Source of the DNA: Mycobacteriales bacterium
GTDB lineage: Bacteria; Actinomycetota; Actinomycetes; JAFAQI01
Length of the DNA: 64,000 nt
Reading direction: 5' to 3'
Assembly: GCA_035501255.1 (NCBI GenBank)
Contig: DATJWM010000086.1
Coordinates: 8,203 to 72,202, forward strand
Shown here piece after piece: positions 832 through 26,474 of this stretch. The position numbers and the translations under genes were made by a program. The notes beneath the pieces are model-generated. The model saw nothing but the letters and a program-made list of their open reading frames with translations. It did not search any database and was not told the origin of the DNA. Position 1 is the first letter of the stretch, and each line of letters begins with the position of its first letter.

Positions 832-1656
832 CTAGCCGAAGCGCCCGTGGACGTAGTCGGCGGTGCGCGCGTCCTTCGGGTTGTTGAAGATGTCCGTGGT
901 GAAACCGGATTCGACGATCGCGCCGGGAGTGCCCATCTCCGCGAGGAAGAACGCGCATTGCTGGGACACCCGCGCCGCCTGCTGCATGTTGTGGGTGACG
1001 ATCACGATCGTGACGTCATGATGCAGATCCGCGATCGTCTCCTCCACCCGCCGGGTCGAGGTCGGATCGAGCGCCGAACACGGCTCGTCCATCAGCAGCA
1101 CCTCCGGGCGCACCGCAAGGGCTCGGGCGATGCACAACCGCTGCTGCTGGCCTCCGGACAACGCCCCCCCGGCGTCTCCGAGGCGGTCCTTGACCTCACC
1201 CCAGAGACTGGCGCGGCTCAGGCATTCTTCGATCAAGTCTGCGCGTTCGGACTTCGACGGCGACGTGCCGGTCAACTTCAGGCCGGCCAGAACGTTGTCG
1301 CCGATCGACATCGTCGGGAACGGGTTCGGCTTTTGGAAGACCATGCCGATCTTGCGACGGGTCTCGGTGATCCGCTGACCAGGCGCATAGATGTCCACCC
1401 CGTCGAGAAGGACCTCGCCGGCTAGCTGCGCACTCGGTACCGATTCGTGCATCCGGTTGAGGATCCGCAAGAACGTCGACTTACCGCAACCCGAGGGACC
1501 GATCAGCGCGGTCACCGTCTTACCCGGCATCGCGAGGGACACCCGTTCGAGCACCTTGTTCGACCCGAACCAGGCGGAGATTCGCACCGCCTCGATCCCG
1601 CTGCCCTGGTTGGATTCGATGCGGAGCCCGGTGGCGGTCTCGTCAATCACCGACAC
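832..1656 (-). CDS. pstB: Phosphate ABC transporter ATP-binding protein PstB (orphan, PhoT-like)
   Basis: 274 aa with Walker A 'GPSGCGKST', signature 'LSGGQQQRL', Walker B 'LLMDEP' and the PstB-typical C-terminus '[19 protein letters not shown]'. Confidence 0.9.
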
Positions 1657-1871
1657 TGCGACGTCCCCTTCGTGTGAGCCTCGCTGTTGCGACCGCCGAG
1701 TGTGACCACAGCCTCGCGCCGGCTCTTCGATCGTAGAGTCGGAACGGCCCTGTGATGTCGGTTCAAGGCAGGCTGACGCCGACAGGTCATCCAGCGTTCA
1801 TCTCCCGGTCGCTTTGTGGTTGACCAACGCCGCGACCGTGGAGGATCCGACAACCACCAAAAGGATCGAGC

Positions 1872-2798
1872 GTGTCGCGAGACCAGGTGCGTCGCGGCGC
1901 CACGCTGGTCGCCATCCTCGCCGCCGCCGCAGGAATGTCGCTGACCTCGACGGCAACGGCCGCAATCGCCGCGCCGAAGGCGAAGTGCGACCTCGCAGTC
2001 ACGACGCCGTACTCGGCGGATCGACCGCTTCGCCTGCCCCTCGTTCTCGACTCGACCGGCAACGCCTACTCGGGGAGCGCGGTATTTCGCTCGATCACCG
2101 TGTCGGACACCAGACGTTCGAACAAGCGCTGGACGCTCAAGGCGCTCGCCGGCCCGTTGAGCTTGACGCCGGCGCAAGGCACCGCCGTGGGCGGCACGGG
2201 TGACGGCCAGATCAACTCCCAGAACGTCGGCATCTCGGAGCTGACCACCCTGCGCGCATGGCATGGCTTTTCTCTCGCCCATCACAACCTCACCCTGATC
2301 AACCGGACCGCGGCCTCCCCACCTGCGCCGGCGGCGGCGAGAGGAGGCCTCGGACTGGGTGGCTCGAAGGCGCACCCGATCGCGACCGCGCTCCATGGCC
2401 GTGGCTCCGTGCGCATCGGTGGCGTGCTCACGCTCGACGCGCCGACCTCGACAGCGGCCGGAAGCTTCGTCGGCGAGGTGACCTTCACCGTTGGCTGTGG
2501 GCGGGTGGTGGTTCCCGTCAAGCCGCCCAAGCACCATCACCATCACCATCACCATCACCACCACCACCCGCATTCGCCCAGGCCGACGCCGACCCCCTCA
2601 TCGACGGTGAAAGCCACCGGGGTGCCACGCGGGACCACCAACGGAGGCGGCAACGGCGGCTCGGGAGGCGTGATGCCGTTCACCGGCTTCGACCTCGCTG
2701 GATTCGTCGTCGCTGCGATCATCGCCTTGGCGCTCGGAGCGCTGTTGGTGGTGGCCGGTCGACGGCGTTGGTCGCAGCCGTCAGGTCCTGGGACCTGA
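1872..2798 (+). CDS. Secreted protein with 13-His tract, PT-rich linker and C-terminal sorting-signal-like anchor (MPFTG + TM + RRR)
   Basis: N-terminal signal peptide 'LVAILAAAAGMSLTSTATAAIAAPKA'. Run 'KHHHHHHHHHHHHHPH' at 2532-2576. The C-terminus 'GGVMPFTGFDLAGFVVAAIIALALGALLVVAGRRRW' has the tripartite layout of a sortase sorting signal. The internal module 'LTLDAPTSTAAGSFVGEVTFTV' is shared with the 4986-6842 protein. Confidence 0.6.
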   Translation: MSRDQVRRGATLVAILAAAAGMSLTSTATAAIAAPKAKCDLAVTTPYSADRPLRLPLVLDSTGNAYSGSAVFRSITVSDTRRSNKRWTLKALAGPLSLTPAQGTAVGGTGDGQINSQNVGISELTTLRAWHGFSLAHHNLTLINRTAASPPAPAAARGGLGLGGSKAHPIATALHGRGSVRIGGVLTLDAPTSTAAGSFVGEVTFTVGCGRVVVPVKPPKHHHHHHHHHHHHPHSPRPTPTPSSTVKATGVPRGTTNGGGNGGSGGVMPFTGFDLAGFVVAAIIALALGALLVVAGRRRWSQPSGPGT

Positions 2799-3728
2799 CG
2801 CCGCGGACCTCCGCCGCCAGAGATAGGCACCGCCAACCCCGACGAGAACGACCGCAACGATCACGCCCGCAATCGCGCCGGCATCCGAGCCGCCGCCGGA
2901 CGAGGACGCGTTGTCCTGCGACGCCGCGCCGCTCGTCGTGTCCGGGCCGGGAGAGGTCGTGCCTGAACCCGAGGCTTGGCTCGACGCTCCGCTCGACGGC
3001 TGGGAGGACGGGGTGGACGTGGAGGCACCGAGCGCGGCCGCGCGGGCGGCGATGTTCGCGGCACGACCGATCGGAGCGCCGACCGACTTGGCTGCCACAG
3101 GTGAGAGCAGCTGTGGTCGGCCACGTCCCTGCTTGTTCCACTTCGGCAGCGCGGACTCCGGTGACACGGCCCGACCGGCGGTGCAGTTCACCCGCACGTT
3201 TGTGACGCTGTGCCATGTCGTTCCCGTGACGTCGATGAACGAAGCCGCGTAATTCGTCGAGTAACCGGTGTCGACGCTGCTGTAGAGCACACGCAGCTCG
3301 ATGTAGTGGCCCGCCATCGCCGGGTAGTCGTTGAGAAAGTCCGACAGAGCGAGGTCGCGGGAGGTCGCCTGTGCCATCGGCACGGAAGCGTTGGTGTAAA
3401 CGCTCGCTGCGGTCAGCGTGTCACCGCTCCATTGGGCCGCGTCGATCCCGGGTCGAGGCTGGAAGGCGTAGAGCGTTGCCTTGCGCCCCTTTCCATTGAA
3501 CGGCTGCGGCGCGGCAGCGGTGCTCACTGCGCGCCAGACGAACGGCTTGTCGTACACGCTGCCGTGCGTGATCTGCTGACCGTGGCTGTTGCAGAATCCC
3601 ACGTGCCCCTGGGCGTAGGGGTCGCTCGGTACCGGTGCCGAGGCGCGAGCCGGCACGGCCGCGACGGCGAGGGATCCGGCCGCAATCAGCGCGGCGGCTG
3701 TCAGAGTCGAGGTTCGGATCAAGCGCAT
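2781..3728 (-). CDS. Surface-anchored hypothetical protein (signal peptide, Ser-rich linker, C-terminal TM + RRR)
   Basis: 315 aa. N-terminal signal 'LTAAALIAAGSLAVAAVPARA'. Ser/Gly-rich stretch, then 'AIAGVIVAVVLVGVGGAYLWRRRS' at the C-terminus. No recognisable catalytic motif. Confidence 0.5.
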   Translation of the reverse strand: MRLIRTSTLTAAALIAAGSLAVAAVPARASAPVPSDPYAQGHVGFCNSHGQQITHGSVYDKPFVWRAVSTAAAPQPFNGKGRKATLYAFQPRPGIDAAQWSGDTLTAASVYTNASVPMAQATSRDLALSDFLNDYPAMAGHYIELRVLYSSVDTGYSTNYAASFIDVTGTTWHSVTNVRVNCTAGRAVSPESALPKWNKQGRGRPQLLSPVAAKSVGAPIGRAANIAARAAALGASTSTPSSQPSSGASSQASGSGTTSPGPDTTSGAASQDNASSSGGGSDAGAIAGVIVAVVLVGVGGAYLWRRRSAASGPRT

Positions 3729-3746
3729 GCGGTGTGCCTACCCTTT

Positions 3747-4871
3747 TCAGGTTGTTCCTGCCGAAGCCGGTCCGGTCGTGACCCGGGTCCCCCGCCGGAC
3801 ATTGCGCCTCCGTCGCACCGCAAAGACGGCGGCAGCAACGACGACGAGGATGAGCGCGAGCAGGATCCAGGGGATCGCGAGAAACGTTGCGCTCGCGGAC
3901 GCCGGCTCGGCGCCAGGGTCGACATCGCCCTCAGGGATGAGCGGAGTGAGAACGACGTGCGAGTGGTCGAAGATCGCGGGAGTGACGTCCTGCGCGTGCA
4001 CGGTGATCGACGCGGAATTGCCGGGCAGGAGCGCCGGGACGTTGCTGGCCGCAACCTTGACCGTCGAGCCGATCCAGCTGCTGACCGTCACCAGCTGGCG
4101 CGCACCCAGGTTGACGTTGCCGGTGTTAACCACCCGGTAACTGATCGTGGCGCTCCCTTTCCCGATCGGGTCGAGTGTTGCCGAATACGAGGTGTGCAGG
4201 CCTTCGACCTGAAGTTGTGGGTGCACCGGCCCGGACACCCGGATAGCGACCGGGACGGCCACCCGCTGCTCGAGCTTCGGGTTGACCTTCAGTCCTTTCC
4301 GGGTCTTCACCGCGGCGCTCAGCGAGGAGATGATCCCTGCCGTGTGGTCGCCCGGCGTCGCGTGGCGCGGGACATGCACCTGGACCGCCACGATCGCGCG
4401 GGATCGCGCCGGCACCCGAAGCACATGTCCGTGGTGCGGAAGACCGAGCGTGATCCATGCCCCCGCGTCGCGCGGGGTAGCCGCCTGCGGCTGAAGCCCG
4501 AGCTGTCCGTTCGCAGCGTTCGTCGCATCCCGTGCGTACAGCGCGAGCGTCAGAGGTTTCTTGGAAAAGTTCTCGATCCCGACATGGTCGTGAACGACCG
4601 CTCCAGGACTCACGAACCACTTGAAGTCCGGCCGCCCGTCGATCTTGTGCGCGTTGGCTGGCCCGATGCCCCACGCCAAACTCTTCGGCGACGGCGCGTT
4701 GTGGGTCGGCTCGTTGGCCGCGGGAACCGTGGCCGAGCCTCGGTCGAGCCAGTGCGACGGGCCGACGGTCGTGGCGATGGCGATGGCGAGGACGAGGACA
4801 AGCGCGCGGCAGATCCGATTCGCGGCCCTGCGGGCGAAGCGGTCGCGCGGGGTGGCCACACCGCTAGCCAA
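3747..4871 (-). CDS. Cell-surface protein with N-terminal signal/TM and C-terminal TM + RRRR tail (possibly DUF916/CscA-like, uncertain)
   Basis: 374 aa. N-terminal hydrophobic 'ALVLVLAIAIATTV'. C-terminus 'FLAIPWILLALILVVVAAAVFAVRRRRNV'. The central beta-rich region carries no enzymatic motifs. Confidence 0.45.
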   Translation of the reverse strand: MASGVATPRDRFARRAANRICRALVLVLAIAIATTVGPSHWLDRGSATVPAANEPTHNAPSPKSLAWGIGPANAHKIDGRPDFKWFVSPGAVVHDHVGIENFSKKPLTLALYARDATNAANGQLGLQPQAATPRDAGAWITLGLPHHGHVLRVPARSRAIVAVQVHVPRHATPGDHTAGIISSLSAAVKTRKGLKVNPKLEQRVAVPVAIRVSGPVHPQLQVEGLHTSYSATLDPIGKGSATISYRVVNTGNVNLGARQLVTVSSWIGSTVKVAASNVPALLPGNSASITVHAQDVTPAIFDHSHVVLTPLIPEGDVDPGAEPASASATFLAIPWILLALILVVVAAAVFAVRRRRNVRRGTRVTTGPASAGTT

Positions 4872-4985
4872 GCCCGGGCGAGTGAACGCCCGTAAATCCG
4901 AGGATGAACAAGAAGCAAAGAGGTCCGGGCGGGCGCTCCACGCGCCCGCCCGGACCCTTGATCCTTCACGAACCTCCAGGGCCGG

Positions 4986-6842
4986 TTAGACCAGGCTTCC
5001 CACGAGGGTGAAGGTGATGGTGCCGGTGAACAAACCCGCCTCGGTGGAGCTCGGGGCGTTGAGGGTCAGCAGACCGGTCAGACCGATCGAACCAATCCCC
5101 TGCTGGGCCTGCGCGATGTCGTGCGCGCCGTTGCCCAGACCCGCAGTGCCGAGGTCCGTCGGCGCGACGGCCGGGTAGGCAGCCGGGTTGGCGAACGTCG
5201 TGAAGTTCGACGCGAGCCCGTTGAACCCGTTGCCACTGACCGGAACCTCGGTCAACCCGGTGAGACCGACGTCCTCACCACTGATCTGCGAACCGGCGTT
5301 GGACCCACCGTCACTCAGCGTCGACGCCGCCGCCTGGGCGGTCCAGGGCAGGTCACCGGCTCGGGTGTCGGTGACGTAGATGTCCTGCGTCGGGTCCGTC
5401 GCGCTTCCGCCGAAGGTAGCGCTCGCCGAATACACCGTGCCCGTGCTGTCCAGGTGCATGGTGCCCAGGTTCAGCGGGTTCTGGTTGGAGTACGGCGTGG
5501 TGATGCTCAGCACACCCTGCGGGATCGTGGCCTCGATGTTCTGCACGTCGGTGCACTGTGAACCGGTCGAGGCGCACGGACCGTTCGGGTTCGCCGACTG
5601 GCTGAACGTCGACGCCGCCGAGGTGGACGTTGCGCAAACCGTCGCGTCGGACGGGCTGAACACCGCGGTGATCGAGTGCGAGCCCGGCGAGTTGAACGTG
5701 TTGGTCGCGTCGAACTCGTTCGGCGTGCCCGGCTTCGGGCTAATCGGTCCTGCAACCTTCGTGGTGTCGTCGTAGAAGTTGACGGTACCGGTGCAGGCCG
5801 AAGCCGACCCGTAGTCCACCGTTGCCACGTAGCTGTTCTGGTCGCCGGCGTACTGACCCGGTGTCACCGACAGGTCGGTGCTCGTGGCCGGCGCCGGAGG
5901 CGCAACCGAGAACGGCACTGTTGCCGAGGTGGATGTCGTCAGGCTGGTGCCGATGTAGGGAGCGAACTGTGCCGTGAAGCTGTGCGTCGACGGGTTCGCA
6001 ACGCTGTCAGTCACGCTCGCCGTGTACGGGCCGGACCCGGACACGAGCTGGGTGGTCCCCACCTGGGTGGCGCCGTCGAAGAACGTCACCGTCCCGATCG
6101 GCCCGGTGTAGCTGCTCGGGACCGCGCTCGCGGCACTCACCGACGCGTTCAGCGTGACGCTCTCCGGGTTGTTCGAGGAGGTGTCCGGGCTGGTCGGCGA
6201 GGTGTGCAGCGTCGTGGTGGTCGTGTCCGTGGCGTCGGGGTAGGTGCCCGAAGCCGGGTACACGACCTGCCAGGTGTCCGCGCTCGGGTTGACCTGGATG
6301 TCGAGCGTGTCGTACTGCGTGGTGTCCGGCGGCTGGCCGGTTCCCGAGGTGTAGATCCGCAGCTGGTAGAGGTTCTGGTAGCCGCTGGTGCTCAGGTTGT
6401 TCGGGTACTCCCCGATGTAGTCGTTCATCGACAGGTCGGTCGACCCGCCGGTGACGAAAGGCAGCCCCGGAGTGCTGACGGCACTCGGCGTTCCGCTCGG
6501 AACCGGGCTGTAGGTCCCGGCGCTGAGCACGTCACTGCTCCAGGTCTGCGGGTTGCTTCCGGGCACCGGCGTAGCGACGTACAGCTGCGCCTTGGAGTCG
6601 CCCGAGCGACCGGCGTGGGACGCGATCGCGTAAGCGGCCAACGGGTGACCATCCAGGCTGCCGCCGGTAATCGGGGCACCCGAGGAGTTGAGCAGCGTGA
6701 TTGTTCCGATGGAGTTCGGGTCCGGTTCCCACCCGACGCTTGTCGTGGTGGCGGACGCGACGCCGCTCGCCGCGAGCACTAGCCCGCTCGCGAGCGCCAG
6801 GGATCCTGCCCCGGTAAGCGCACGTTTGAAGTTGGTTCGCAC
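4986..6842 (-). CDS. Large secreted Thr/Ser-rich repeat protein; N-terminal domain paralogous to the 16461-17585 product; C-terminal module shared with the 1872-2798 product
   Basis: 618 aa with signal peptide 'LALASGLVLAASGVASA'. N-terminus 'TTSVGWEPDPNSIGTITLLNSSGAPITGG...AYAIASHAGRSGD..QLY' matches 'TTPGWEPDPNAIGSITLYDSSGSPITSG...AYAVATHAGRSGD' in the 16461 gene. The C-terminus ends '...LTLNAPSSTEAGLFTGTITFTLVGSLV'. Confidence 0.6.
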   Translation of the reverse strand: MRTNFKRALTGAGSLALASGLVLAASGVASATTTSVGWEPDPNSIGTITLLNSSGAPITGGSLDGHPLAAYAIASHAGRSGDSKAQLYVATPVPGSNPQTWSSDVLSAGTYSPVPSGTPSAVSTPGLPFVTGGSTDLSMNDYIGEYPNNLSTSGYQNLYQLRIYTSGTGQPPDTTQYDTLDIQVNPSADTWQVVYPASGTYPDATDTTTTTLHTSPTSPDTSSNNPESVTLNASVSAASAVPSSYTGPIGTVTFFDGATQVGTTQLVSGSGPYTASVTDSVANPSTHSFTAQFAPYIGTSLTTSTSATVPFSVAPPAPATSTDLSVTPGQYAGDQNSYVATVDYGSASACTGTVNFYDDTTKVAGPISPKPGTPNEFDATNTFNSPGSHSITAVFSPSDATVCATSTSAASTFSQSANPNGPCASTGSQCTDVQNIEATIPQGVLSITTPYSNQNPLNLGTMHLDSTGTVYSASATFGGSATDPTQDIYVTDTRAGDLPWTAQAAASTLSDGGSNAGSQISGEDVGLTGLTEVPVSGNGFNGLASNFTTFANPAAYPAVAPTDLGTAGLGNGAHDIAQAQQGIGSIGLTGLLTLNAPSSTEAGLFTGTITFTLVGSLV

Positions 6843-7012
6843 TACAGTTTTCTCCTTTAGGAAGTGTCCAGATGCGAAAAGTCGGTCATCATGGACACGG
6901 GCTGGGCCCGTGCCCGGTCCAACGAGACCCTCTCCCCGGCGCCCGGTCCGAAGCCAAAGGCGCCGGGGAGAAGGGTTTTCTGCGGTTATTGCAACTTCAC
7001 CGCCAGGGTGAC

Positions 7013-8290
7013 TCAGCCGGATGAAACGTCGCCGAGGTCCTGGTAGTTCGGGGTGAAGTAGGCCGCGCTGATGTCCGGAGCGTTCGACGCCCGAGCGATC
7101 CAGCTGGTGCTGCCCTTCAGCAGGTCGTTCACGAAGTTCTTCGTGCCGCCTGGCTGGGAGGGCTTACAGCCGGAGTAGCTCGACGACGCACAAGTTCCCG
7201 AACCCGGCGTCAGGCCGAGGTCGTAGTCACGGGCGATGAAGTACAGCCCGCGGGTCGAGTCGTACACCGAGTCGCTGTGTGAAGTGTCGCTGTCGCTGGC
7301 CGGCTTCTGGTCAGCGGACGGGCAGTTCGGCGTCATGTCACCGGTGGTGCAGCCGCTGATCAGCGAGATGTTGAAGTTGGATGCGGGCTCCTGGCTGTTG
7401 CCGTAGTAGCCGCTCTGGATGAGGTTGATCTTGCCGACCGAGAACGGCTCGATCGCGTCCGCCGGAGTCGCCGCCAGCGTGACGCCGGTCGGGTCGTGCT
7501 CCTCACTGATCCGGATGCAAGTGCTCGAACTGATCGTCGAGTCGGACACACCGATGTCGGACTCGAAGAAGTTGCGAGTGCCCGAGCCGGACTGCGGGAT
7601 CACCGGAATGATGTGGTCGGTCGAGGCGCCGGAAGGCGCGCCCGGAACCTCAGCCCACTCGATTCCCTGGCTGCCGTCGCAGTGGCTGTAGATGTAGGCG
7701 AGTTGCGTGCCGTCAAGCGGGAAGCCGTTGAAGCTCACGCTCGACTTCGCGATCTCCAGGTTGTCGGTGGCGAACTGGAACACGTGCAGACCACCGCAGT
7801 CCGTGATACCGGCGCACGACGTCTGCTCCGAGCCCTTCGGCAACCGGGACGCACGGGAGAAGGTGAGCGACCCGGTTGGCAACCCTTGGTAGCCGCCGCC
7901 ACCGACCGAGTCCGCGATCAGCGCGCTGATACCCGCACCCGAGCCATCCGGACGCTCGACCGGCTTCGTGCCGGCCCGCAGCACCGCCGACGTTGTGCCG
8001 TTGCCGTAAAGCAACGCACCGGTGGAGTCGTAGAGCGCCCGGCCGTTGCCGTCACCGGTCGCGAAGTAGTTGTAGACGCTGTTCGTCTTGCCCGTGTTGT
8101 ACGCCGGGTCACCCGCGACGTCACCACTGAACAGGAAGTCCGCAGCGTTCTGAACCGTGTCAGAGCCGACAGCGACCGCGTCGCCCGGACGTGCTTGCGG
8201 ATCGGCCCACGCCGGCTGCATTGCAAACAGCAATGCGGCGGTGGTCCCCGCGGCACCGAGCGCCAGAGTCGCCCTTGCCTTTCTCGACAT
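7013..8290 (-). CDS. Secreted PstS-like (periplasmic binding protein superfamily) domain protein, divergent
   Basis: 425 aa with signal 'LALGAAGTTAALLFAMQPAWA'. 'AVGSDTVQNAADFLF' and 'IIPVIPQSGSGTRNFFESDIG' resemble the 'GSGSTW...' and 'IPIVPIVHSEGSGTSYQF' segments of the PstS at 12274-13956. Assigned by resemblance only. Confidence 0.4.
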   Translation of the reverse strand: MSRKARATLALGAAGTTAALLFAMQPAWADPQARPGDAVAVGSDTVQNAADFLFSGDVAGDPAYNTGKTNSVYNYFATGDGNGRALYDSTGALLYGNGTTSAVLRAGTKPVERPDGSGAGISALIADSVGGGGYQGLPTGSLTFSRASRLPKGSEQTSCAGITDCGGLHVFQFATDNLEIAKSSVSFNGFPLDGTQLAYIYSHCDGSQGIEWAEVPGAPSGASTDHIIPVIPQSGSGTRNFFESDIGVSDSTISSSTCIRISEEHDPTGVTLAATPADAIEPFSVGKINLIQSGYYGNSQEPASNFNISLISGCTTGDMTPNCPSADQKPASDSDTSHSDSVYDSTRGLYFIARDYDLGLTPGSGTCASSSYSGCKPSQPGGTKNFVNDLLKGSTSWIARASNAPDISAAYFTPNYQDLGDVSSG

Positions 8291-8460
8291 TCGCCCTCCT
8301 TGGAGGCAGTGCGGAGCCTTTCTCCGCCGGGGCGACCCTAGAGGCCCAATCGGGCTATCAAGCCGCTAGATCCTGAACAGCAGACGAACGATCACCACAA
8401 TCGCGCGATAGGCCTGCTATCGCGCGAGGCGGATGGGCTCCGTGTGACCACGGAGCGTCA

Positions 8461-9441
8461 TCACAGAAGGTTGGGGAGTAGCCGCGCTGCGGTCTCGGTC
8501 ACGACCCAGAGGATCGCGAGCATCGCCGGAACGCCGACCAGCCAGACCTGGCGGCCGCCCCATCGTCGATGCGCCCACACGAAGCCGATCCCGACGACGA
8601 CCAGCAGCTCCAACCAGAGCACCAGCGGGGTGAGCGCGGTGCGATCGATTGCCATCGCCACCTGGTTGGAGGGCTGAACCGTCGGTCCGCCTCCCGGCGA
8701 AGGTTGCGCCTTGCCGACCAGGTTGGCGTCGACGTAGACAACCTGAGAGGGCGCCCACCCACTGCGCCATCCGCTGCCCTCTGCGCTGACCAGAGTGAGG
8801 CGACCCTGGCCGGACGAGAGCAGCGGTGGTACCGGATCGCCAGGCCGTCGTACGTCGGTGACGCGATAGGTGAATGTGCCCTGACCGGTCACTGCCGTGA
8901 TGCCATCACCCGGTTGCAGCCGGGTGATGTGGGCAAACGGTGCACCAAAGGTGGCGCTCTTGCCAAAGACCACGCTCACGCCTGCCTGGCCGGGCAGAAC
9001 GGTGTCCACCCGGTGTCCCGGCCCCTTCTGCAAGTCGGTAGAGGTCGTGCCCTCCACCACAACGGCGCGGTTGATGCCGGCCTGGGAGGCGCTGATGAGA
9101 GCCACCGGCGCACCGTCGGTGATTTGCCCCCCCAGCGGCGCAACCTCGTTGGCCAGATCCGCCCGCAGGCTCGCGTACATCTGCGCCTGTGTGTGCCTCT
9201 CCTGAAAGCCGCTCAGCACCAACGCATACAGCACCACCCAAAACGCGAGTGCACACAACAGCGCGAGAACCACCAGGACCGTTCCGCCGGGTCCGGTGGA
9301 CGGCGGTCCGCCGGCCGCCCACACCGCGCGCATCCGTGCTCCGGACCGCTGGCGCCAACCCGCGAACCCTCCGGCCTCCGCCGGAGCTGACGCCGCGCCC
9401 GGATCGGAAGTGGGCGCCTTGTCCGCCACGCGGGTGCTCAT
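8461..9441 (-). CDS. Sortase-fold membrane protein (class E-like) lacking the catalytic cysteine (TLxTC replaced by 'TLVSA')
   Basis: 326 aa with an N-terminal TM helix. Sortase hallmarks 'GHRVDT', 'TFGAPFAHITRLQPGDGITAVTGQGTFTYRVTDV' (GAPF..L..GD.I......TY.V) and 'LTLVSAEG' at the TLxTC position. The DNA reads 'gtc agc gca', so the loss is not a single-base artefact. The only Cys lies in the TM helix. Two extra C-terminal TM helices. Confidence 0.6.
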   Translation of the reverse strand: MSTRVADKAPTSDPGAASAPAEAGGFAGWRQRSGARMRAVWAAGGPPSTGPGGTVLVVLALLCALAFWVVLYALVLSGFQERHTQAQMYASLRADLANEVAPLGGQITDGAPVALISASQAGINRAVVVEGTTSTDLQKGPGHRVDTVLPGQAGVSVVFGKSATFGAPFAHITRLQPGDGITAVTGQGTFTYRVTDVRRPGDPVPPLLSSGQGRLTLVSAEGSGWRSGWAPSQVVYVDANLVGKAQPSPGGGPTVQPSNQVAMAIDRTALTPLVLWLELLVVVGIGFVWAHRRWGGRQVWLVGVPAMLAILWVVTETAARLLPNLL

Positions 9442-9448
9442 CGGCCGA

Positions 9449-12325
9449 TCACGTCTTCGCGCCCGTTCGGCGCCAACCCCGGACCAACCGGGGTCCGATC
9501 ACCGCGATTGCGGTGACGACCGCCGCCAACAAGACGATCGGGATCGCGATACCCAACGGACCGACCGGCGTCGCGGGAGTCGCCACGGCGGCCGGGCTGG
9601 CACTCTCGCTCGGGGACGAAGCGGGAGACGACGCGGAGGTGGACGAACTCGGTTGTGGCGACGTTCCTCCGTCGCTGTGGGTCGAAGTCGGGCCGGGCGT
9701 TCGGGAGACCGGTGGCGTCGAGCGCTGTGACGACGGCTCGGTCTGGGTCGGTGTGGGGGTCGGATCAGGGCAACCCGACCACTTCGACCTCGTCTGCCCG
9801 GAGCCGTTGATGTTCGGGATTTCGCACTGCTGGTCCGAGACGGCCTGCGCTGCCCGAGCCGTATACGCCGACTCCGCGCCAAGGCCGTTCGCCGCGGTCA
9901 TCGGCAGGTAGCCCGGCGGAAGGTCGCCGAAGGAGTTGCCGGGCGTCTGCCCCGCCTTCGCCGCGAACGACAGCTGCTGGGCAAACGCGCTCGCCGCCTC
10001 AGACGACAACCCCGCACTCGGCACGCTCTCCGACACAAGCATCGTGCCCGGATATGCATGAGCAGTGCTGGAGCCGCTCCGCAGCTTGCCGTAGTCCATC
10101 GACCACGCGTTCATCGACGGATCGGGCTTCAGCGCACTCACTGCGCTGCGCATCGTCTTGGTTGATGCCCGCACGAACGTGCCATCCGCAGGGCCGTGGA
10201 TCTTCGACGTGGGTGACACCGACGACCGCGTCTCCAGCAGCGCGGTGTCGAGGTCGTAGCGTTTGGCCTCCGACAACGACACCACGCCGAGCATGAACCG
10301 CACGCCGGGCTGCTGACGAGGGTCGGCGCTGATCTTGTCGGCCGCCGCCACCGTGGCGATCGTGCAGTTGGTCGTCGAGTTCGGCAGTCCGAACTCCATG
10401 TCATAGGCGGCCGTGGACAGGCTCAGCACCGGGGCGGCAACCAGCGGGAGATACGGCACCTGGAACTGGGTCTGGGCGAAGCATCCTGACTTGTCGGCGT
10501 TGTAGGACTGGGTGGGGACGAAGGTGTCCTTGAGCGGCCAGAAGTCGACCGGAAGCTTCATCCCCTTGTATGCGGGATTGACCACCATCCCCCACGGATC
10601 GGGCTTGCCGTTGATGAACGCCCGGGCGGCCGGGTCAGCCTCGATGTAGGAGGTCAGGGCGCGCATGATGTCGGAGTTCGAGGACAACGCCATCAACTCG
10701 GCCCGGGCCTCGTAGTAGATCAGGTAACCCGGCTGCGGGCTCGCCTTCGGGATGTCGGGGTTAAGCGCTTGGAATTCCGGGTCATCGGTGATGTTCAGCG
10801 GGTTGTCGGCCATCGGACCGGGTGTCGTACCGCCGTCCGGAGAGCCGTCGTCCTGAGCAACCTCGTCGAGCACCGGGTAGGACTCGGTGAGTAACTTTGC
10901 GAGCAGCCTCGGGTCCAGCCTGACATCGAAGACCTCGTTATGGTCGCCGTCGTCGACCAGCGTGGCGATGGCAAACCCGTTGACCGCGACCGGTGCATTG
11001 ACGACGGGATGCCCCGACTTGCCCTCGGGTTTGGAAGGGTAGGTGTCATACGCAGCCTGAATGTTGCCTTCGGACAGGCTGTTGACGGAGGCCGGCTCCG
11101 CCTGCGGGACCTGTGTGAACGGCGTACGCTTCGGATCCGTGCAGAACGCCGGCGCCCACTGTTGGGCGGCCTCGGTCATCAGCTCCGAGCCGTACACGAA
11201 GACCGCGGGCTTGCTGCCGACCACCGAGCAGTAGTCCGCCGGCTTGGCAAAACTCAGCGGCACGGTGATGCGATTGCGCCAGTTCGACGCCGACCACCAC
11301 AAGGCGCCGGTGACGGACTCGAGCGCCATGTTTCCCGGATCACCATCAAGCTCGCGGGTTGCGTTCTCGGCCTGCCCCGACTGGTCGTCGGAGTAGGTGC
11401 AGTTGGCAATGTCCTGCGCACTGAGATCACCCCTGGCCTGCTCGTCACAACTCATCCCGTCGATCGGGATGACGACGAGCGAGCAGGGCACCGACGACGA
11501 ACAGCCGAGGGTCGCGTTGGTCTCGTCGCTCCAGAGAACGAACTTTGCGAGCCCGCTCCCATCGCTCCCGGTCGTGCCAAAAGTGGTGTTGTCCGGAAAG
11601 TCCGCCGTGAACGTACCCTGCTCGGGGGCCAGCTTGCTGCACGCCACCGTGGGACCGCTGTAGTAGGTCTTGCCATTGGCGCCGTCGAGAGGCTGGAAGT
11701 AGTCCGCCTCGTTGAGCGCGTACTTGCTGCAACCAGTGGGCAACGGCTTTGGAACGTTGTTGAAGGCGGGGAGATTTCCCGCGTAGCGATCCATTCGCCA
11801 CGGTGGGTAGTCAGTACCGGGCGCGGTCGCGTTGCGCTCACTCAGGTACTGCGTCCAGCAAGTGTTGGGGCTCAACCGCTGCGCAGCGGGCGCCTTGGAC
11901 GAGTCGACACCCCGGCACTCGAGGACCACGACCGGGTACTCCTCGAGGGTCGCCGCGGTCGAGGAGTTCGGGTCAGGATCGACGTAGTTGCTGGGATGCG
12001 CCCCCTTCCACGAAACGTTGATCTCCTGCAAGGTGCGCAGCTGCTTGGTCGCACTGACACTCACGGTCACTTTCCGCTTGTCGACGGTCTTGGTCTTCCC
12101 GTCCGGAAGAACGTCGCTGCGAGTGATCTGCTTACTGACCGTGACCGCGCCGGCGCCCGCAGCGCTCTTGGCCTGAGCCGCTCCCGAGGCGCCCGCGGCG
12201 CCTGCGACCTGCGCCAGGGAGCCGGCCGCGATCAAAGCCGCCGCAGCGATCGCGACCGCCCGACGCCGGCTGCTCACGACGCCGCACCCGGCGGCGGTGC
12301 GCCGGGCTTGGACCAGCGCCGCCAA
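9449..12325 (-). CDS. Large (~945 aa) surface-anchored Cys-containing hypothetical protein; PT/S-rich linker + C-terminal TM + RR tail
   Basis: Longest ORF on the track. The true start is probably the GTG near 12280 ('VSSRRRAVAIAAAALIAAGSLA' signal peptide), immediately after the pstS stop. The C-terminus reads 'PDPTPTPTQTEPSS...PVGPLGIAIPIVLLAAVVTAIAVIGPRLVRGWRR'. No recognised catalytic domain. Confidence 0.55.
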   Translation of the reverse strand: MAALVQARRTAAGCGVVSSRRRAVAIAAAALIAAGSLAQVAGAAGASGAAQAKSAAGAGAVTVSKQITRSDVLPDGKTKTVDKRKVTVSVSATKQLRTLQEINVSWKGAHPSNYVDPDPNSSTAATLEEYPVVVLECRGVDSSKAPAAQRLSPNTCWTQYLSERNATAPGTDYPPWRMDRYAGNLPAFNNVPKPLPTGCSKYALNEADYFQPLDGANGKTYYSGPTVACSKLAPEQGTFTADFPDNTTFGTTGSDGSGLAKFVLWSDETNATLGCSSSVPCSLVVIPIDGMSCDEQARGDLSAQDIANCTYSDDQSGQAENATRELDGDPGNMALESVTGALWWSASNWRNRITVPLSFAKPADYCSVVGSKPAVFVYGSELMTEAAQQWAPAFCTDPKRTPFTQVPQAEPASVNSLSEGNIQAAYDTYPSKPEGKSGHPVVNAPVAVNGFAIATLVDDGDHNEVFDVRLDPRLLAKLLTESYPVLDEVAQDDGSPDGGTTPGPMADNPLNITDDPEFQALNPDIPKASPQPGYLIYYEARAELMALSSNSDIMRALTSYIEADPAARAFINGKPDPWGMVVNPAYKGMKLPVDFWPLKDTFVPTQSYNADKSGCFAQTQFQVPYLPLVAAPVLSLSTAAYDMEFGLPNSTTNCTIATVAAADKISADPRQQPGVRFMLGVVSLSEAKRYDLDTALLETRSSVSPTSKIHGPADGTFVRASTKTMRSAVSALKPDPSMNAWSMDYGKLRSGSSTAHAYPGTMLVSESVPSAGLSSEAASAFAQQLSFAAKAGQTPGNSFGDLPPGYLPMTAANGLGAESAYTARAAQAVSDQQCEIPNINGSGQTRSKWSGCPDPTPTPTQTEPSSQRSTPPVSRTPGPTSTHSDGGTSPQPSSSTSASSPASSPSESASPAAVATPATPVGPLGIAIPIVLLAAVVTAIAVIGPRLVRGWRRTGAKT

Positions 12326-13956
12326 AGTAGCGGCGGAACGATCAGTGCGGCGAGGAACAGACCGACAGCGAGGAGCCCTAACGCCGTGCTGTTGTCCTGA
12401 CCGTCGGCGACCGTCACCGGCTCACCCTCAACGTTGGCGTTCGTGGTCCCCCCGGTCGATCCGACCCGCTGGCCGGTCACCGGATCGACCGGACCCGTGC
12501 TTGCCGATCCCGTCTTGGTCCGCCCGTTGCCGGATCCCGGCGAGGTCGGGCCCGGAGTCCCGCCTCCCTGGTTGGACCCGCCACCACCGTTCTTTTTGCC
12601 GCCGTCACCGCCCTGCGTTTTGCTCTGGTTCTGCTTCACGCTGGTGATCGAGGGGCCGGTCGAATCGTTGGGGGTCGTGCACGGTCCGTGACCCTGCTCA
12701 TCGCACAGCGGAGGCTCGGGGGCGATCTTGGCGAGGTAGTTCTCGGCGGGGTGGTTGGCGACGAAGGTCGGGTTCCCGCACGTGCTCACGTTCAGGTTGT
12801 TGAGCGAGACCTTCGAGTCAGCCTTGTGCAGCAACCCGATCTGCTGGAACCCTGCCTCCACCAGGTTGATCGGCAAGGCGGAGTACCCGAGGCCGCCGAC
12901 CGCGCCTTGGCCCTGGCAGATCGAGGTGTACAGAAAGTCGGCGAGAGTCTGGCGCTTCGGCGACGTCATCGTCCGGTCGCTGCTCGACGTAGGGATGATG
13001 CCGTAGGAGTACGACGAGACGGGATAGGTCCGTTTGTCGTTGTACCCGTATACGTCCTTCAAATTCTCGAGCAGGTAGTTGTTCGAGTGCCGGTTGTAGT
13101 TGATGATCGCTTTCGTCAACGCCACGGCCACGTTGTACTGCGTCGGGAGCGTGTAGTACCCCGCGGTGTTCTCGACCTTGGCGACCGGAATCTTCTTCGC
13201 GATCGCATAGGAATACTCGTCGTAGCCGATCGTCCCCTGCCCGGACGACGATGCGATGTAGTTCATCAACTGGTCCGAGCCGTTCTGAGCAATCTGTCCG
13301 GACTTGCCGCTCGGCCAGTACTCCGTCGGCTTGTCAGCTCCTGCAAAGCCGGTCCACAGGCTCCTGTCCTCCTGGGCGAGATACGCGGAGAACTGGTAGC
13401 TCGTGCCCGATCCCTCCGAATGCACGATCGGCACGATCGGGATCGAGGGGAACTTCCGACCGTTGTTGTCCGCAGAGATGTGGGAGTCGTCCCAGTTCTT
13501 GATCTGCCCGGTGAAGATCTTGGCAAGAGTCGGCCCTGACAACCGGAGGTTGCGCACGAGCTTGCCGGCCACGGTCAGGTGATATGGGAACGAGGTACCA
13601 CCGGCAACCAGTGGTACATAGGCGTATGGTCGCCCGTTGGACGTGTCGGACACGCCGGTCAGCGGGTCGTGACCCTGGAATCCGATGTCGGACACCGCGA
13701 AGTCGACCGCTTTGTTGGCGAAGTCCTGACGGCCCGCCGCCGAGCCGTTCCCGGTGAAGGTCACCCGCAGACCTTGTCCTGACACCTCGCCGATCCAGGC
13801 GTTGACCGCGTTGTAGGCCCAGGTCGAGCCGGAACCGTTGATCTGCGCCGTGCCGGTGGCGTACGACGGCGTCGCGGTCAGTGCGACCAGACCGGACGCG
13901 GCACACAGGGACAAAACCCGCGCCCGGGCGCGGCCGGCGCGGCGGTGTCCGGTCAT
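12274..13956 (-). CDS. pstS: Phosphate-binding protein PstS with Gly-rich C-terminal extension and C-terminal TM anchor
   Basis: Start ATG 13954-13956 overlaps the pstA stop (ATGA). Signal 'VLSLCAASGLVALTATPSYA'. PstS core motifs 'NGSGSTWAYNAVNAW', 'SAAGRQDFANKAVDFAVSD' and 'SEGSGTSYQF'. Then a 'GGDGGKKNGGGGSNQGGG' linker and 'ALGLLAVGLFLAALIVPPLLWRRW' at the C-terminus. The upstream part of ORF 12274-14271 is an unsupported extension. Confidence 0.8.
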   Translation of the reverse strand: MTGHRRAGRARARVLSLCAASGLVALTATPSYATGTAQINGSGSTWAYNAVNAWIGEVSGQGLRVTFTGNGSAAGRQDFANKAVDFAVSDIGFQGHDPLTGVSDTSNGRPYAYVPLVAGGTSFPYHLTVAGKLVRNLRLSGPTLAKIFTGQIKNWDDSHISADNNGRKFPSIPIVPIVHSEGSGTSYQFSAYLAQEDRSLWTGFAGADKPTEYWPSGKSGQIAQNGSDQLMNYIASSSGQGTIGYDEYSYAIAKKIPVAKVENTAGYYTLPTQYNVAVALTKAIINYNRHSNNYLLENLKDVYGYNDKRTYPVSSYSYGIIPTSSSDRTMTSPKRQTLADFLYTSICQGQGAVGGLGYSALPINLVEAGFQQIGLLHKADSKVSLNNLNVSTCGNPTFVANHPAENYLAKIAPEPPLCDEQGHGPCTTPNDSTGPSITSVKQNQSKTQGGDGGKKNGGGGSNQGGGTPGPTSPGSGNGRTKTGSASTGPVDPVTGQRVGSTGGTTNANVEGEPVTVADGQDNSTALGLLAVGLFLAALIVPPLLWRRWSKPGAPPPGAAS

Positions 13957-15059
13957 CGAACGGAGCCCTTCTGACGGGATGCGAGGAAACGAATGAGGAC
14001 GAAAACGACCAGCACGATGATGAGCAGCAGGCTCGCGGCACCGAAGGCGCGGGTGATGAAGTTGGGCTCGCCGCTGCGCACGCCCGAGTAGACGAACAGC
14101 GGCAAGGAGTTCATCGGGTTGTTGACCGGGTTCGTGTTGAAGTACGTCGACGCACCTGAGGTGATCAAAACTGGCGCTGTCTCGCCGACGGCCCGAGCGA
14201 ACGCGAGAATCAACGCGGTCGCGAGACCGGCTCCGGCCGTTGGCAGCACCACCCGCCAGACCATCCGCCACTTCGGAGCACCGAGCGCGAGCCCCGCCTC
14301 CCTCAGCCCGCCCGGCACAACCCGAAGCGAAAGCTCAGCCGATCGCGCGATGATCGGCAGCATGGTGATGGTGAGTGCGATCGCGGCGGCGAGTCCGCTC
14401 TTTTGCATCCCCAGGCCGACGATCAGCAGGGTGTAGACGAACAAACCGGCGATCAGGTCAGGAAGGGCGGTCATCGCCTCAACGACGGTTCGCACGGTAC
14501 GCGCGAGCGGGCCACCAACCTCCGTCATGTACACGGCGGTCGCGATTCCGAGCGGAAGTGCGACCGCGGTCGCGATCGCCAGTTCGATCAGGCTGCCGAC
14601 CACCGCGTGCAAGACACCACCGCGAGTCAGCGGATCCGTCGGCTGCACCGCGTTCATGTCCTGGGTGTAGAAGTTCATGTGGTGGAGCGCCGGCCACCCG
14701 CGAACGAACGTGTAGATGATCGTGGTGGCCAGGGCGAAGGCGACGATCCCCGCCCCGGCACAGATGATCGCGCGCATGAGTCGATCCACGACGACCGGGC
14801 GCGGGTGCGACATCGCGGTGACCGCGGTGTACAGCGCGAGGAAGCTGAGATACCAGCACACGATGAAGCCGAGCAGGCCATGTTCCGGAAGGAGCTCGCC
14901 GTAGACGATCCAGACGGCGCCGAGCGATCCGAACAGCGAGCCGAAGAAGGACAGCACGTCATCGGTCGTCCGGACGGCGAGCTCGCGCGGACGGTCCTCG
15001 CCGGCACCATCGGGGAGGTTGCCGGACACGGACGGCATCGGCAGTGACTCGGTCGACAT
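13953..15059 (-). CDS. pstA: Phosphate ABC transporter permease PstA
   Basis: 368 aa with 6 TM helices. ABC permease EAA-like region 'ARAVGETAPVLITSG'. Position after pstC and before pstS. Its stop overlaps the pstS start. Confidence 0.8.
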   Translation of the reverse strand: MSTESLPMPSVSGNLPDGAGEDRPRELAVRTTDDVLSFFGSLFGSLGAVWIVYGELLPEHGLLGFIVCWYLSFLALYTAVTAMSHPRPVVVDRLMRAIICAGAGIVAFALATTIIYTFVRGWPALHHMNFYTQDMNAVQPTDPLTRGGVLHAVVGSLIELAIATAVALPLGIATAVYMTEVGGPLARTVRTVVEAMTALPDLIAGLFVYTLLIVGLGMQKSGLAAAIALTITMLPIIARSAELSLRVVPGGLREAGLALGAPKWRMVWRVVLPTAGAGLATALILAFARAVGETAPVLITSGASTYFNTNPVNNPMNSLPLFVYSGVRSGEPNFITRAFGAASLLLIIVLVVFVLIRFLASRQKGSVR

Positions 15060-16243
15060 CAGATCTCCGTTGCCGCGCCACTACGGCTGCGAGTGACGAT
15101 CATCCCGGCGATCGTGTTCACGACCAGCGTCAGCGCGAAGAGGACAAAGCCGGCGGCGAGCAATGCCTTGAGCTGGAGTGAGGTCGAATCGCCGAAGCGA
15201 TCGGCAATCAACGACGAGGTCGTGATCGCACCGACCTGCAGCGCGTGAATGTTGACCTTGTAGACCAGCGAGATGATCAGCAAAACGGCGATCGTCTCGC
15301 CCAATGCGCGACCGAGTCCGAGCATCGTCCCCCCGATGATCCCGCCCCGACCGAATGGCAAGACGACCGTTCGAATCACGCCCCACTTGGTCGAACCCAG
15401 GGCAAGGGCGGCTTCACGTTCACCGATCGGTGCCTGCGCAAAAACGCCGCGCATGACCGCACACGTCAGCGGGGTCACCATCATCGCGACCGCGATCCCG
15501 GCGATGAACGCCGAAGCCGTGAACTGTGTCTCCGCCCAGGTCGCAGAGTGCGCATCGGTGTCGACGGACAGGAAGGGGATCCAACCGAAGTACTCCGCAA
15601 GCCAACGGGAAAGCCCGAGGACATGCGGTTGGAGGAGGAAGAAGCCCCACAGGCCATAGACGATGCTCGGCACCGCGGCCATCAGGTCGACGAGCGAGAC
15701 GAGGGTCGCCTTGATCCGCCTGGGCGCGAACTCGGTGATGAACAACGCCGTACACAACGCGAGCGGAAAGGCGATCGCGAGCGCGATCAGGCCGATCTCG
15801 ACCGTGCCGAACAGCGCAGCTGCCACACCCAACTTGTTCTGGTCCGGGTTCCAATCGGTTTCGGTGAAGAAGCTGAACCCGTAGTGCTTGATCGTCGGGA
15901 TCAGCTGAAGGGCCAGGAAGAACCCGATTGCGGCGGTCAGGACCAGAACGAGCACGCCGATGACCGTTGACACGCCGTTGAACGCACGGTCCGAAGGAGC
16001 CAGACCGGCATGGATGAACCGCGGTTTGTCAGGTGCTTCCGCGTCGAACGCGGTGATGTCGACGTCCGGCACTGTTACAGCCGTCGAACGGCGCTGGCCA
16101 CGCACCCAGCCACGGTGCTCGGGGTGGGCGACCACGGAGATGACTCGATCGAAACAGGTCGTGGCTTCGCAGCGAACAACAGGTGAACGACCACAACGCC
16201 CGGACGCCCAAGGCGGCCCCGGCAACGGGCAAAGCGGGTGCAA
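15059..16243 (-). CDS. pstC: Phosphate ABC transporter permease PstC (true start probably internal, ~16078)
   Basis: TM core 'FTETDWNPD', 'LGRALGETIAVLLI'. The annotated N-terminal ~55 aa ('MHPLCPLPGPPWASGRCGRSPVVRCE...') is non-membrane, Cys-rich and overlaps the PHO-box-like repeat. A GTG/ATG start around residues 46-63 is more plausible. Confidence 0.75.
   Translation of the reverse strand: MHPLCPLPGPPWASGRCGRSPVVRCEATTCFDRVISVVAHPEHRGWVRGQRRSTAVTVPDVDITAFDAEAPDKPRFIHAGLAPSDRAFNGVSTVIGVLVLVLTAAIGFFLALQLIPTIKHYGFSFFTETDWNPDQNKLGVAAALFGTVEIGLIALAIAFPLALCTALFITEFAPRRIKATLVSLVDLMAAVPSIVYGLWGFFLLQPHVLGLSRWLAEYFGWIPFLSVDTDAHSATWAETQFTASAFIAGIAVAMMVTPLTCAVMRGVFAQAPIGEREAALALGSTKWGVIRTVVLPFGRGGIIGGTMLGLGRALGETIAVLLIISLVYKVNIHALQVGAITTSSLIADRFGDSTSLQLKALLAAGFVLFALTLVVNTIAGMIVTRSRSGAATEI
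16160..16187 (-). promoter_or_regulatory. PHO-box-like direct repeat (GTTCACCTGTT GTTCGCTGCGA) upstream of pstCAS
   Basis: The minus strand reads 'GTCGTTCACCTGTTGTTCGCTGCGA': two 11-nt direct-repeat units with the GTTCACC core of actinobacterial PhoP/PHO boxes. It lies just upstream of the likely real pstC start. Confidence 0.4.
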
Positions 16244-16460
16244 TGGGTGGCGGCCAAGGTTAACGATCGGCGATTCATCGATGAAGCACAGATGACCATC
16301 TGAGGGAATCTGGTGCAGACCGCTCGAAACTGACCGTCAACCGCGCATGCTGTTGCGTCGCGGGGTGCGTTCCGAACCGGCCGGACGGACGGCCGGAGTC
16401 GCAACGCGCACCTGACGCATCGCAACCACCCAACTTTGCAGGCGGATACGGAGGACAGGA

Positions 16461-18173: not shown

Positions 18174-18336
18174 GGGTACCCTCCGGCGTCCGACCTCGGC
18201 CGCGGCGAGGGTCAGACTTCACAATCCGCGCTCGGCCATGCTGTGCAGCGAGTACACCCGATCGACGACGACGGCGGCTGAGCGGCAGACGAACACCAAA
18301 TGTGCGGTACGTGAACGAACGGTGGACGCCACCGCC

Positions 18337-26473: not shown

Positions 26474-26474
26474 G

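Follow-up and report, generated by a model that had tools for sequence, protein, structure and literature searches.

A conserved actinobacterial gene module around a Pst-like importer, with PstS-fold surface proteins and a sortase-like pseudo-enzyme

A stretch of 64,000 nucleotides (nt) from a Mycobacteriales bacterium (assembly GCA_035501255.1, contig DATJWM010000086.1, positions 8,203 to 72,202), here called the window, carries pstC-, pstA-, pstS- and pstB-like genes together with genes for surface proteins. Judged by gene content and by comparison with other genomes, the region is one copy of a conserved actinobacterial module and not a disrupted pst operon. Its core reads as a translationally coupled operon for an ATP-binding cassette (ABC) importer, a membrane-tethered PstS-like binding protein, an ectoprotein of 942 amino acids (aa) and a dead sortase. 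Units transcribed separately alongside would supply a third PstS-family protein, which is secreted, and a putative wall complex of the WxL/DUF916 type made up of a large WxL-like protein, a DUF916-like anchor, stalked proteins with a common novel N-domain and a protein with an LPxTG-like tail. A capture and import apparatus induced by phosphate limitation and built around a paralogous Pst importer is the best explanation, with roughly an even chance of being correct. All coordinates refer to the whole stretch; on the minus strand the transcription order runs from the pstC-like gene to a gene for a 315-aa protein.

The 942-aa protein has 744 homologues, and a pattern scan in which each species was represented by one genome located relatives at 441 genomic places. 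The best 80 of the 441 places were examined as loci, and the window proteins were mapped onto them by tblastn. All 80 belong to Actinomycetota. Carriers include Mycobacteriales, Frankiales, Acidothermaceae, Jatrophihabitans, Nocardioides/Marmoricola, Pseudonocardiales, Streptosporangiaceae, Micromonosporaceae, Nanopelagicales and Acidimicrobiia. A cultured Dactylosporangium (Micromonosporaceae) is among the loci, and a protein of Jatrophihabitans endophyticus among the homologues. The core order pstB-pstC-pstA-PstS-942-sortase-like is nearly invariant in the loci examined. Adjacency was counted 75 times for the 942-aa and sortase-like genes, 74 times for PstS/942, 71 times for pstA/PstS, 66 times for pstC/pstA and 49 times for pstB/pstC. 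Four of the five core junctions have a median gap of -4 nt, and pstC/pstA one of about +4 nt. An accessory set is located on either side of the core, including a 425-aa protein, a large WxL-like protein, a DUF916-like protein, a protein of the 315-aa type and a second WxL-like or immunoglobulin-like (Ig-like) protein. Among loci with sufficient flanking sequence, most show this set linked to the core. The junction from the DUF916-like gene to the 315-aa-type gene likewise has a median gap of -4 nt (31 loci).

The window holds a variant of this order. As the original prediction had it, pstC and pstA precede pstS on the minus strand and pstB stands apart: the pstB-like gene (832..1656, -) lies 10.6 kb past the stop of the PstS-like gene, close to the 11 kb given before. 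A position of pstB directly upstream of pstC was found in 41 loci, and one gene separates the two in eight further loci, including the closest relative (L001). In six other loci, from Marmoricola, Nocardioides and Jatrophihabitans, pstB is located at the far end as in the window. The contiguous arrangement pstS-pstC-pstA-pstB(-phoU) was found neither in the window (C-A-S ... B) nor in most loci (B-C-A-S), and phoU was absent from the window and from the flanks seen of the other loci. Since the distal pstB is recurrent and the partnership of genes is conserved, the window layout is best read as a recurrent permutation of an old module, therefore not as an insertion event.

Two permeases and an ATPase constitute the importer. 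The pstC-like ABC permease (15059..16072, -; Pfam BPD_transp_1) matches Escherichia coli PstC with an E-value of 6.5e-48 and keeps the motif GLGRALGET with the equivalents of Arg237 and Glu241. Its GTG start at 16072 was inferred: the longest open reading frame (ORF) begins at 16243, and the GC content of third codon positions (GC3), used to tell genuine genes from antisense ORFs in this DNA of about 66% G+C, drops upstream of 16072. The pstA-like ABC permease (13953..15059, -) scores 212 bits with the PstA model TIGR00974, above the cutoff of 193. It matches E. coli PstA (E 1.4e-33), the motif ARAVGET holding the equivalents of Arg220 and Glu224. The Arg237 and Glu241 equivalents are conserved in 67 and 66 of 68 PstC orthologues, the Arg220 and Glu224 equivalents in 67 and 66 of 69 PstA orthologues. 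Phosphate specificity in the transmembrane domain is set by Arg220 of PstA and Arg237 of PstC, according to a cryo-electron microscopy study of 2026 (PMC12976172). Both BPD_transp_1 permeases are hence of the PstC/PstA type with the phosphate-specificity arginines, as expected of a Pst-type importer. In the pstB-like ATPase (TIGR00972) the Walker A, signature, Walker B and H-loop motifs are essentially invariant (59 to 61 of 61 orthologues). Second 'pstB' matches in other loci were weak (56-119 bits) and were rejected as Pst components. A paralogous Pst-type ABC importer is the best reading of the three proteins.

The PstS-like binding protein (12274..13956, -) has a PstS domain behind a signal peptide, then about 100 aa of low-complexity stalk and a C-terminal transmembrane anchor with the conserved end VPP..RR. 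It matches PBP_like_2 (E 4e-33) and PstS in the PDB (E 1e-21), and appears to be a divergent paralogue anchored to the membrane by its C-terminus. The canonical pocket, taken from E. coli PstS, comprises Thr10, Ser38, Asp56, Arg135 and Ser139-Gly-Thr141. The fold and most of the hydrogen-bond donors are retained in the PstS-like protein, and Arg135 is gone. The pocket Asp (Asp56 of E. coli PstS) accepts a hydrogen bond from protonated phosphate. Two covarying pocket types exist: Ser38/Asp56/His135, present in the window, and Asp38/(Ser or Ala)56/Gln135, found mainly in Acidimicrobiia. Asp56 is accordingly variable, while an Asp at position 38 or 56 is always kept, swapping together with His or Gln at position 135. 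Asp at position 137 is always replaced by Glu (68 orthologues). The Arg of the motif G[SD]AxGRxDF was conserved in all sequences inspected. Given the covariation, the retained Asp and the kept Arg, the pocket is under selection, though remodelled. Two metagenome-assembled genomes (MAGs) harbor two modules each, namely L013 and L015 in JAFAZI01, and L021 and L026 in CAYNDD01. The paired modules differ in pocket type (Ser38/Asp56/His135 versus Asp38/Ser56/Gln135) and in the placement of accessory genes. These sequence differences hint at two module sub-families with different ligand or pH preferences.

The 942-aa ectoprotein (9449..12277, -) contains a Cys-rich beta domain (residues ~45-340), a very divergent PstS-fold domain (~355-830), a disordered stalk and a C-terminal transmembrane helix. 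The single sequence had no match in Pfam or the PDB, and a profile of 81 sequences against the PDB was likewise unhelpful. The PstS fold was identified from predicted structure alone. An AlphaFold2 model with a mean local confidence (pLDDT) of 84 and a predicted template modelling score (pTM) of 0.83 displays the fold with large insertions. In Foldseek searches of the PDB, the top 26 matches were all phosphate-binding or DING proteins; the best was Mycobacterium tuberculosis PstS3 with a TM-score to the target of 0.80. A 425-aa secreted protein of the PstS family (7013..8290, -) has no anchor. Its family profile retrieved 1TWY from the PDB (E 1.6e-10) along with DING and other phosphate-binding proteins, and the motifs GSDT.Q, NGSGAG, F.R.S and PQSGSGTR are conserved. 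Two PstS-like domains among the intervening genes, as originally predicted, were recovered in these two proteins, by predicted fold in the former and by family profile in the latter.

The sortase-like membrane protein (8461..9441, -) has the sortase beta-barrel (Pfam Sortase PF04203, E 6.2e-11; PDB 5UUS, E 1.2e-9). With the class E sortase model it scores 64 bits, below the cutoff of 160. Besides an N-terminal transmembrane segment it possesses a conserved C-terminal transmembrane pair (RWG..W.VG.P ... LLPN). In the window, the site of the catalytic His reads GKS, with Lys, and the TLxTC site reads TLVSA, with Ala. Over 76 orthologues, the Cys site is occupied by Ser (37), Ala (31), Thr (4), Gly (2) or Val (1) and in none of the 76 by Cys, and many members are cysteine-free. 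The His site holds Arg in 56, Lys in 18 and His in two. The pair of catalytic His and TLxTC Cys that defines a class E sortase is missing, and the protein is most plausibly a pseudo-enzyme. The window protein HTR70009.1 is publicly named 'class E sortase', although Cys is absent across the family and His nearly always; the entire family thus seems to be systematically misannotated. In P0072, P0105 and L020 (an ORF of 1211 aa), the 942-aa protein is fused to the sortase-like one. This Rosetta-stone-type evidence suggests that the 942-aa protein and the dead sortase act together.

Seven genes lie between the PstS-like and the pstB-like gene. All seven products carry signal peptides or membrane anchors, which agrees with the predicted secreted or surface-anchored character. 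The 618-aa 'large WxL-like' secreted protein (4986..6842, -) begins with a novel N-domain of about 160 aa. Two Ig-like domains of the Big_3_5 family come next, and a WxL-like beta domain at the C-terminus ends in GLFTGTITFTL. The motifs of this C-domain are DTRAGDLPW and GLFTGTITFTL, the second 'WxL' motif being TFT. The domain is homologous to a region narrowly below the Pfam WxL cutoff in a relative; Pfam WxL scores are borderline and were obtained with homologues only. A 374-aa protein (3747..4871, -) resembles WxL-interacting proteins (DUF916). In the window, WxLIP_PGBD is matched with E 1.8e-5 and 25.2 bits versus a cutoff of 27.3. Among its orthologues, 16 of 29 match PF06030 (best 1.3e-10), and the combination of DUF916 with a C-terminal transmembrane anchor is present, along with an (A/V)PW motif. 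The gene of the 315-aa protein (2781..3728, -) starts 18 nt past the stop of the DUF916-like gene; its product combines the shared N-domain with a stalk rich in Ser and Gly and a transmembrane anchor at the C-terminus.

The 308-aa WxL-like protein (1872..2798, +; GC3 0.82) has a WxL-like domain (RWTLKA) that shares 41% identity with the 618-aa C-domain, a run of 12 His (2532-2567) and a sorting-signal-like tail of MPFTG, a transmembrane segment and RRR. Tails reading LPFTG, LPRTG, LARTG, LASTG and LPHTG are found in equivalent genes of other loci, as in LPxTG proteins. The 3' end of the 308-aa gene and the convergent 315-aa gene overlap by 18 nt (2781-2798), a near-palindrome, and both proteins end in SGP(G/R)T. 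The N-domain of about 160 aa (PPWEPDPN ... YQLR ... W) is encoded at 6243-6842 (-) in the 618-aa protein, at 3129-3728 (-) in the 315-aa protein and at 16461-17060 (+) in another 374-aa protein. It has no Pfam match, is predicted to be mostly beta-stranded, and is conserved in all loci with three copies per module. That other 374-aa protein (16461..17585, +) is a secreted paralogue with Ig-like repeats, divergent from pstC and 64% identical to the 618-aa N-domain; L001 has this gene at the equivalent position. No single sorting motif was found that all C-terminal anchors share, only the family-specific VPP (PstS-like) and (A/V)PW (DUF916-like).

The original prediction joined the whole array into one fused operon of co-oriented genes. 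Part of this holds for the core. The pstC and pstA genes have one base in common (TGATG), and the predicted ATGA overlap of pstA and pstS was confirmed. The 942-aa gene overlaps the PstS-like stop as predicted (GTGA); its product is not the 958-aa protein assumed before. The reading of 958 aa from TTG 12325 was rejected in favor of GTG 12277, which overlaps the stop and gives 942 aa. A further overlap claimed at 9449/9441 proved to be tight spacing without overlap, with 7 nt between the 942-aa stop and the sortase-like start. Downstream, gaps of 114-215 nt and hairpins divide the array. Gaps of 170 nt with hairpins follow the sortase-like gene and the 425-aa gene; the core/425-aa boundary (8368..8427, -) comprises a hairpin (8401-8427) and then a PHO-box-like repeat. 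After the 618-aa gene, a GC stem of 15 bp with a T-tract forms a strong intrinsic terminator, followed by three 11-nt units (4877..4957, -). A divergent region of 215 nt separates the 308-aa gene from pstB. Because of the hairpins, terminator and gaps, the region probably forms about six transcription units and not one fused operon. Co-orientation also fails at 1872-2798, where the gene is on the plus strand, and pstB, a transcription unit of its own, therefore cannot be co-transcribed with the rest. The minus-strand ORF 1647-2573, probably the one counted originally as the seventh co-oriented gene, was rejected, with a GC3 of 0.66 and an Arg-rich nonsense translation compared to 0.82 for the plus-strand gene. 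In L001, the 308-aa orthologue is likewise on the opposite strand. The terminators and the oppositely oriented gene make a single phosphate-dependent transcript spanning the region unlikely. A sigma-70 promoter scan of the window found nothing, as expected in high-GC DNA.

In Streptomyces, a PHO box requires two units of 11 nt, each beginning with the seven bases GTTCACC (PMC2691820, PMC6988585). The predicted 11-nt direct repeat of this type upstream of pstC was located at 16167-16188 (-), about 100 nt before the GTG, as GTTCACCTGTT GTTCGCTGCGA, with weaker units at 16254-16297. Upstream of the 425-aa gene, GTTCGTCTGCT GTTCAGGATCT occupies 8368-8389, 99 nt before the start and with the 8401-8427 hairpin ahead of it. 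The DUF916-like gene is preceded by three 11-nt units, GTTCATCCTCG GATTTACGGGC GTTCACTCGCC, at 4877-4909 after the terminator (4921-4957). Further PHO-box-like sites are present at 18306-18327, before a small upstream gene, and at 1785-1817 in the divergent region between the 308-aa gene and pstB. Several of the window sites are degenerate, with 2-4 mismatches. At least two 11-nt GTTCACC units upstream of a gene were found in the window as well as across the loci.

In the window alone, two sites at no more than two mismatches compare with 0.59 expected, and 11 of 100 shuffles reach two, which is not significant. The significance of the repeat derives from the comparison across loci. The motif GTTCACC-N4-GTTCACC was counted at no more than two mismatches in the module spans of the retrieved loci and the window. 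Intergenic DNA (102 kb) contained 25 sites on the coding strand and two on the other, genic DNA (966 kb, both strands) 14 sites. In a control with 419 composition-matched permuted 7-mers, the mean was 0.7 sites; the maximum of 21 belonged to a one-base shift of the same motif. The distance to the gene is also fixed. In 425-aa orthologues, the site (G/A)TTCATCCCTCGTTCAY lies mostly 94-108 nt upstream; allowing three mismatches, it was detected in 20 of 52 loci in the forward direction and in none of the 52 as reverse complement. Repeats precede the DUF916-like gene by 40-53 nt (L061, L074, L084), WxL-like genes by 66-136 nt, and the first core gene by 71-170 nt (L039, L061, L065, L077). There is good comparative evidence that these repeats are a common operator of the OmpR family, putatively of the PhoP type.

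In the proposed mechanism, phosphate limitation would lead a regulator of the PhoP type to bind the GTTCACC direct repeats before the units, and the surface proteins would assemble within the wall and on its surface. Phosphate would be captured by the PstS-fold proteins, which would capture phosphate or a phosphoryl ligand and pass it to the tethered PstS-like protein, which would dock on PstCA, with PstB powering import. The dead sortase most likely would act as a non-enzymatic membrane scaffold or receptor for its C-terminally anchored partners. The phosphate-starvation-controlled surface and scavenging module of the original prediction fits the recurrent PHO-box-type repeats and the kept permease arginines. 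Other observations weigh against the proposal. The PstS-like protein (TIGR00975, 174.7 bits) stays under the PstS equivalog cutoff of 205, and the PstB-like protein (TIGR00972, 333.5 bits) slightly below its cutoff of 343.2. Position 135 of the PstS-like protein is His in 50 and Gln in 16 of 68 orthologues and never Arg, the window having His. The 425-aa family has an invariant Pro at the Arg135 equivalent, and in the PstS-fold domain of the 942-aa protein a conserved Glu apparently stands where PstS has Thr or Ser. High-affinity binding of orthophosphate is not assured, because all three PstS-fold proteins are without the canonical Arg135. The ligand is the main doubt, with the permease arginines and the retained pocket Asp as counterweight. 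Genes for a phosphatase or a nuclease are absent from the module, as is phoU. In the window the boxes ahead of the 425-aa gene have four mismatches, and PhoP is a candidate regulator named from the motif. MtrA and GlnR, also of the OmpR family, bind repeats of 11-nt periodicity too (PMC6988585).

These points feed an alternative in which the ligand imported or sensed is not orthophosphate (but a different oxyanion, a metal-phosphate complex, or a phosphorylated compound, organic or from the wall), or an envelope-related OmpR-family regulator replaces PhoP, the Pst-like parts having been recruited. The loss of Arg135 in the three binding proteins, the invariable Glu for Asp137, the low equivalog scores and the motif spacing common to MtrA and GlnR sites speak for it, as do the two covarying pocket types, found side by side in the genome of L013 and L015. 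It is nevertheless considered somewhat unlikely: the transmembrane Arg pair that sets phosphate specificity in E. coli PstCA is kept, and one pocket Asp, as needed for protonated phosphate, is always retained. The half-site is GTTCACC itself, moreover, and no permuted 7-mer equalled its site count. The surface genes could also represent a WxL/Csc-type adhesion or wall-decoration cluster unrelated to transport, linked to the core by shared regulation or assembly. DUF916-like, WxL-like and LPxTG-type-tail proteins occur in Csc clusters of Firmicutes (PMC9772566), and the accessory set shifts as a block between the sides of the core, with promoters and terminators of its own. This is rendered quite improbable by the PstS-family protein inside the block, its linkage to the core in most loci, the repeat motif it has in common with the core, and the embedding of the 942-aa protein and dead sortase in the transporter operon with overlapping codons.

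A canonical pstSCAB-type operon split by insertion of a surface cassette, with pstB orphaned and all genes co-transcribed under phosphate limitation, was the arrangement suggested originally. The gene order of the window does look so, start and stop codons overlap tightly from pstC through the 942-aa gene, and a PHO-like box precedes pstC. The probability of this model is very small. The partnership is ancient, conserved in 80 of the 80 loci examined, and relatives usually have pstB first (B-C-A-S), the nearest one (L001) included, with the surface genes linked to pst-like genes. The PstS-like protein is a divergent membrane-anchored paralogue, one gene lies on the other strand, and three gaps carry hairpins or terminators. 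The phosphate-limitation-induced capture and import apparatus remains the preferred reading. In a bolder form, it would be a wall-spanning phosphate relay of monoderm high-GC bacteria: a secreted PstS-fold protein on a WxL/DUF916-type complex, the stalked 942-aa protein and the permease-tethered PstS-like protein would pass phosphate inward to a dedicated PstCAB, and the dead sortase would be a scaffold recognising C-terminal anchors. This more detailed picture is speculative and on the whole unlikely. With His or Gln in place of Arg, the pocket might be adapted to peat and to acidic soils poor in phosphate; bog, palsa or SPRUCE (peatland) sample names are attached to several carrier genomes.

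Compared with PstSCAB of E. coli and M. tuberculosis, the module has the same Arg237/Arg220 permeases, intact PstB motifs, a PstS-fold protein and upstream PHO-box-type repeats. It differs in the order B-C-A-S (or C-A-S ... B) and in the absence of phoU. Its binding protein is not free or a lipoprotein but sits on a long stalk with a C-terminal transmembrane helix, is without Arg135 and scores under the PstS cutoff. Two more PstS-fold proteins, the dead sortase and the wall complex are added as obligate neighbours. WxL/Csc clusters are known from Lactobacillales and Listeria (small WxL, large WxL, DUF916-DUF3324 and LPxTG proteins), and more than 91% of known WxL proteins are from Firmicutes (PMC9772566). 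Common to both are LPxTG-type tails, a DUF916-like protein with a C-terminal anchor, a large multi-domain protein ending in a WxL-like beta domain, and a shorter one that has this domain too. In contrast, the module resides in a high-GC actinobacterium, its second motif is TFT, Pfam WxL is borderline and in homologues alone, the set is coupled to an ABC importer and PstS-fold proteins, and the shared N-domain is novel. With class E sortases (Streptomyces SrtE1; PDB 5CUW, 5GO5, 5UUS), the module protein has the homologous domain, the N-terminal membrane anchor and the conserved GPGH motif in common. Unlike these, it has no catalytic Cys, its His is mostly Arg or Lys, and it carries an extra C-terminal transmembrane pair within a transporter operon, sometimes fused to the 942-aa protein. 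The sites share with Streptomyces PhoP PHO boxes the half-site, the 11-nt periodicity, two or three units and the position upstream of a Pst-type transporter (PMC2691820), whereas here they are putative and several are degenerate.

The Pst importer, PstS fold, sortase fold, WxL/DUF916 clusters and PHO boxes are known kinds. Literature searches on the module, on WxL proteins with PstS and on pseudosortases found nothing relevant and no paper linking the components. What appears undescribed is their obligate combination, along with a PstS-like protein tethered by its C-terminus, a giant protein of PstS fold and a dead sortase that is conserved. For Gram-positive actinobacteria, the usual picture of phosphate capture is a PstS lipoprotein that feeds PstCAB. 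The module suggests a second, more elaborate capture apparatus in mostly uncultured lineages of soil, peat and freshwater. WxL/DUF916-type complexes would extend from Firmicutes to Actinomycetota, with a nutrient-related role, and the sortase-like family would be a clear case of a fold retained without its chemistry. The predictions are directly testable in cultured carriers (Dactylosporangium, Jatrophihabitans endophyticus).

Proteins identical to those of the window are recorded from a Mycobacteriales MAG, with accessions between HTR70003 and HTR70014. Their public names are "hypothetical" for the 942-, 425- and 315-aa proteins, for the PstS-like protein "substrate-binding domain-containing protein" and for the sortase-like protein "class E sortase". 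Elsewhere in the window no phoU, phoPR or canonical pst operon was found, just an unrelated ABC ATPase. A gene for an SLT_2 lytic transglycosylase (2-829, +) flanks the module, and SLT_2 genes are located at the module border also in L001, L006, L007, L008, L015, L032, L035, L038 and L066. The transglycosylase could be linked to wall insertion of the complex. The DNA at 17676-18173 (-) and 18337-19281 (-), beside the module, encodes a small protein, cytoplasmic and with the motif WRL..N.RxLGRS in duplicate, and further upstream a PPK2 polyphosphate kinase. Relatives of the small protein show sub-threshold DUF1508 matches, and its gene, which in the window has a PHO-like box ahead of it, adjoins pstB in 16 loci. 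PPK2 was rejected as a module member, being adjacent in just three loci. At 25520-26620 (-) and 26475-27548 (-), a fusion of an ABC ATPase with a cyclic-nucleotide-binding domain is encoded beside an FtsX-type permease, an unusual architecture with no relation to the module.

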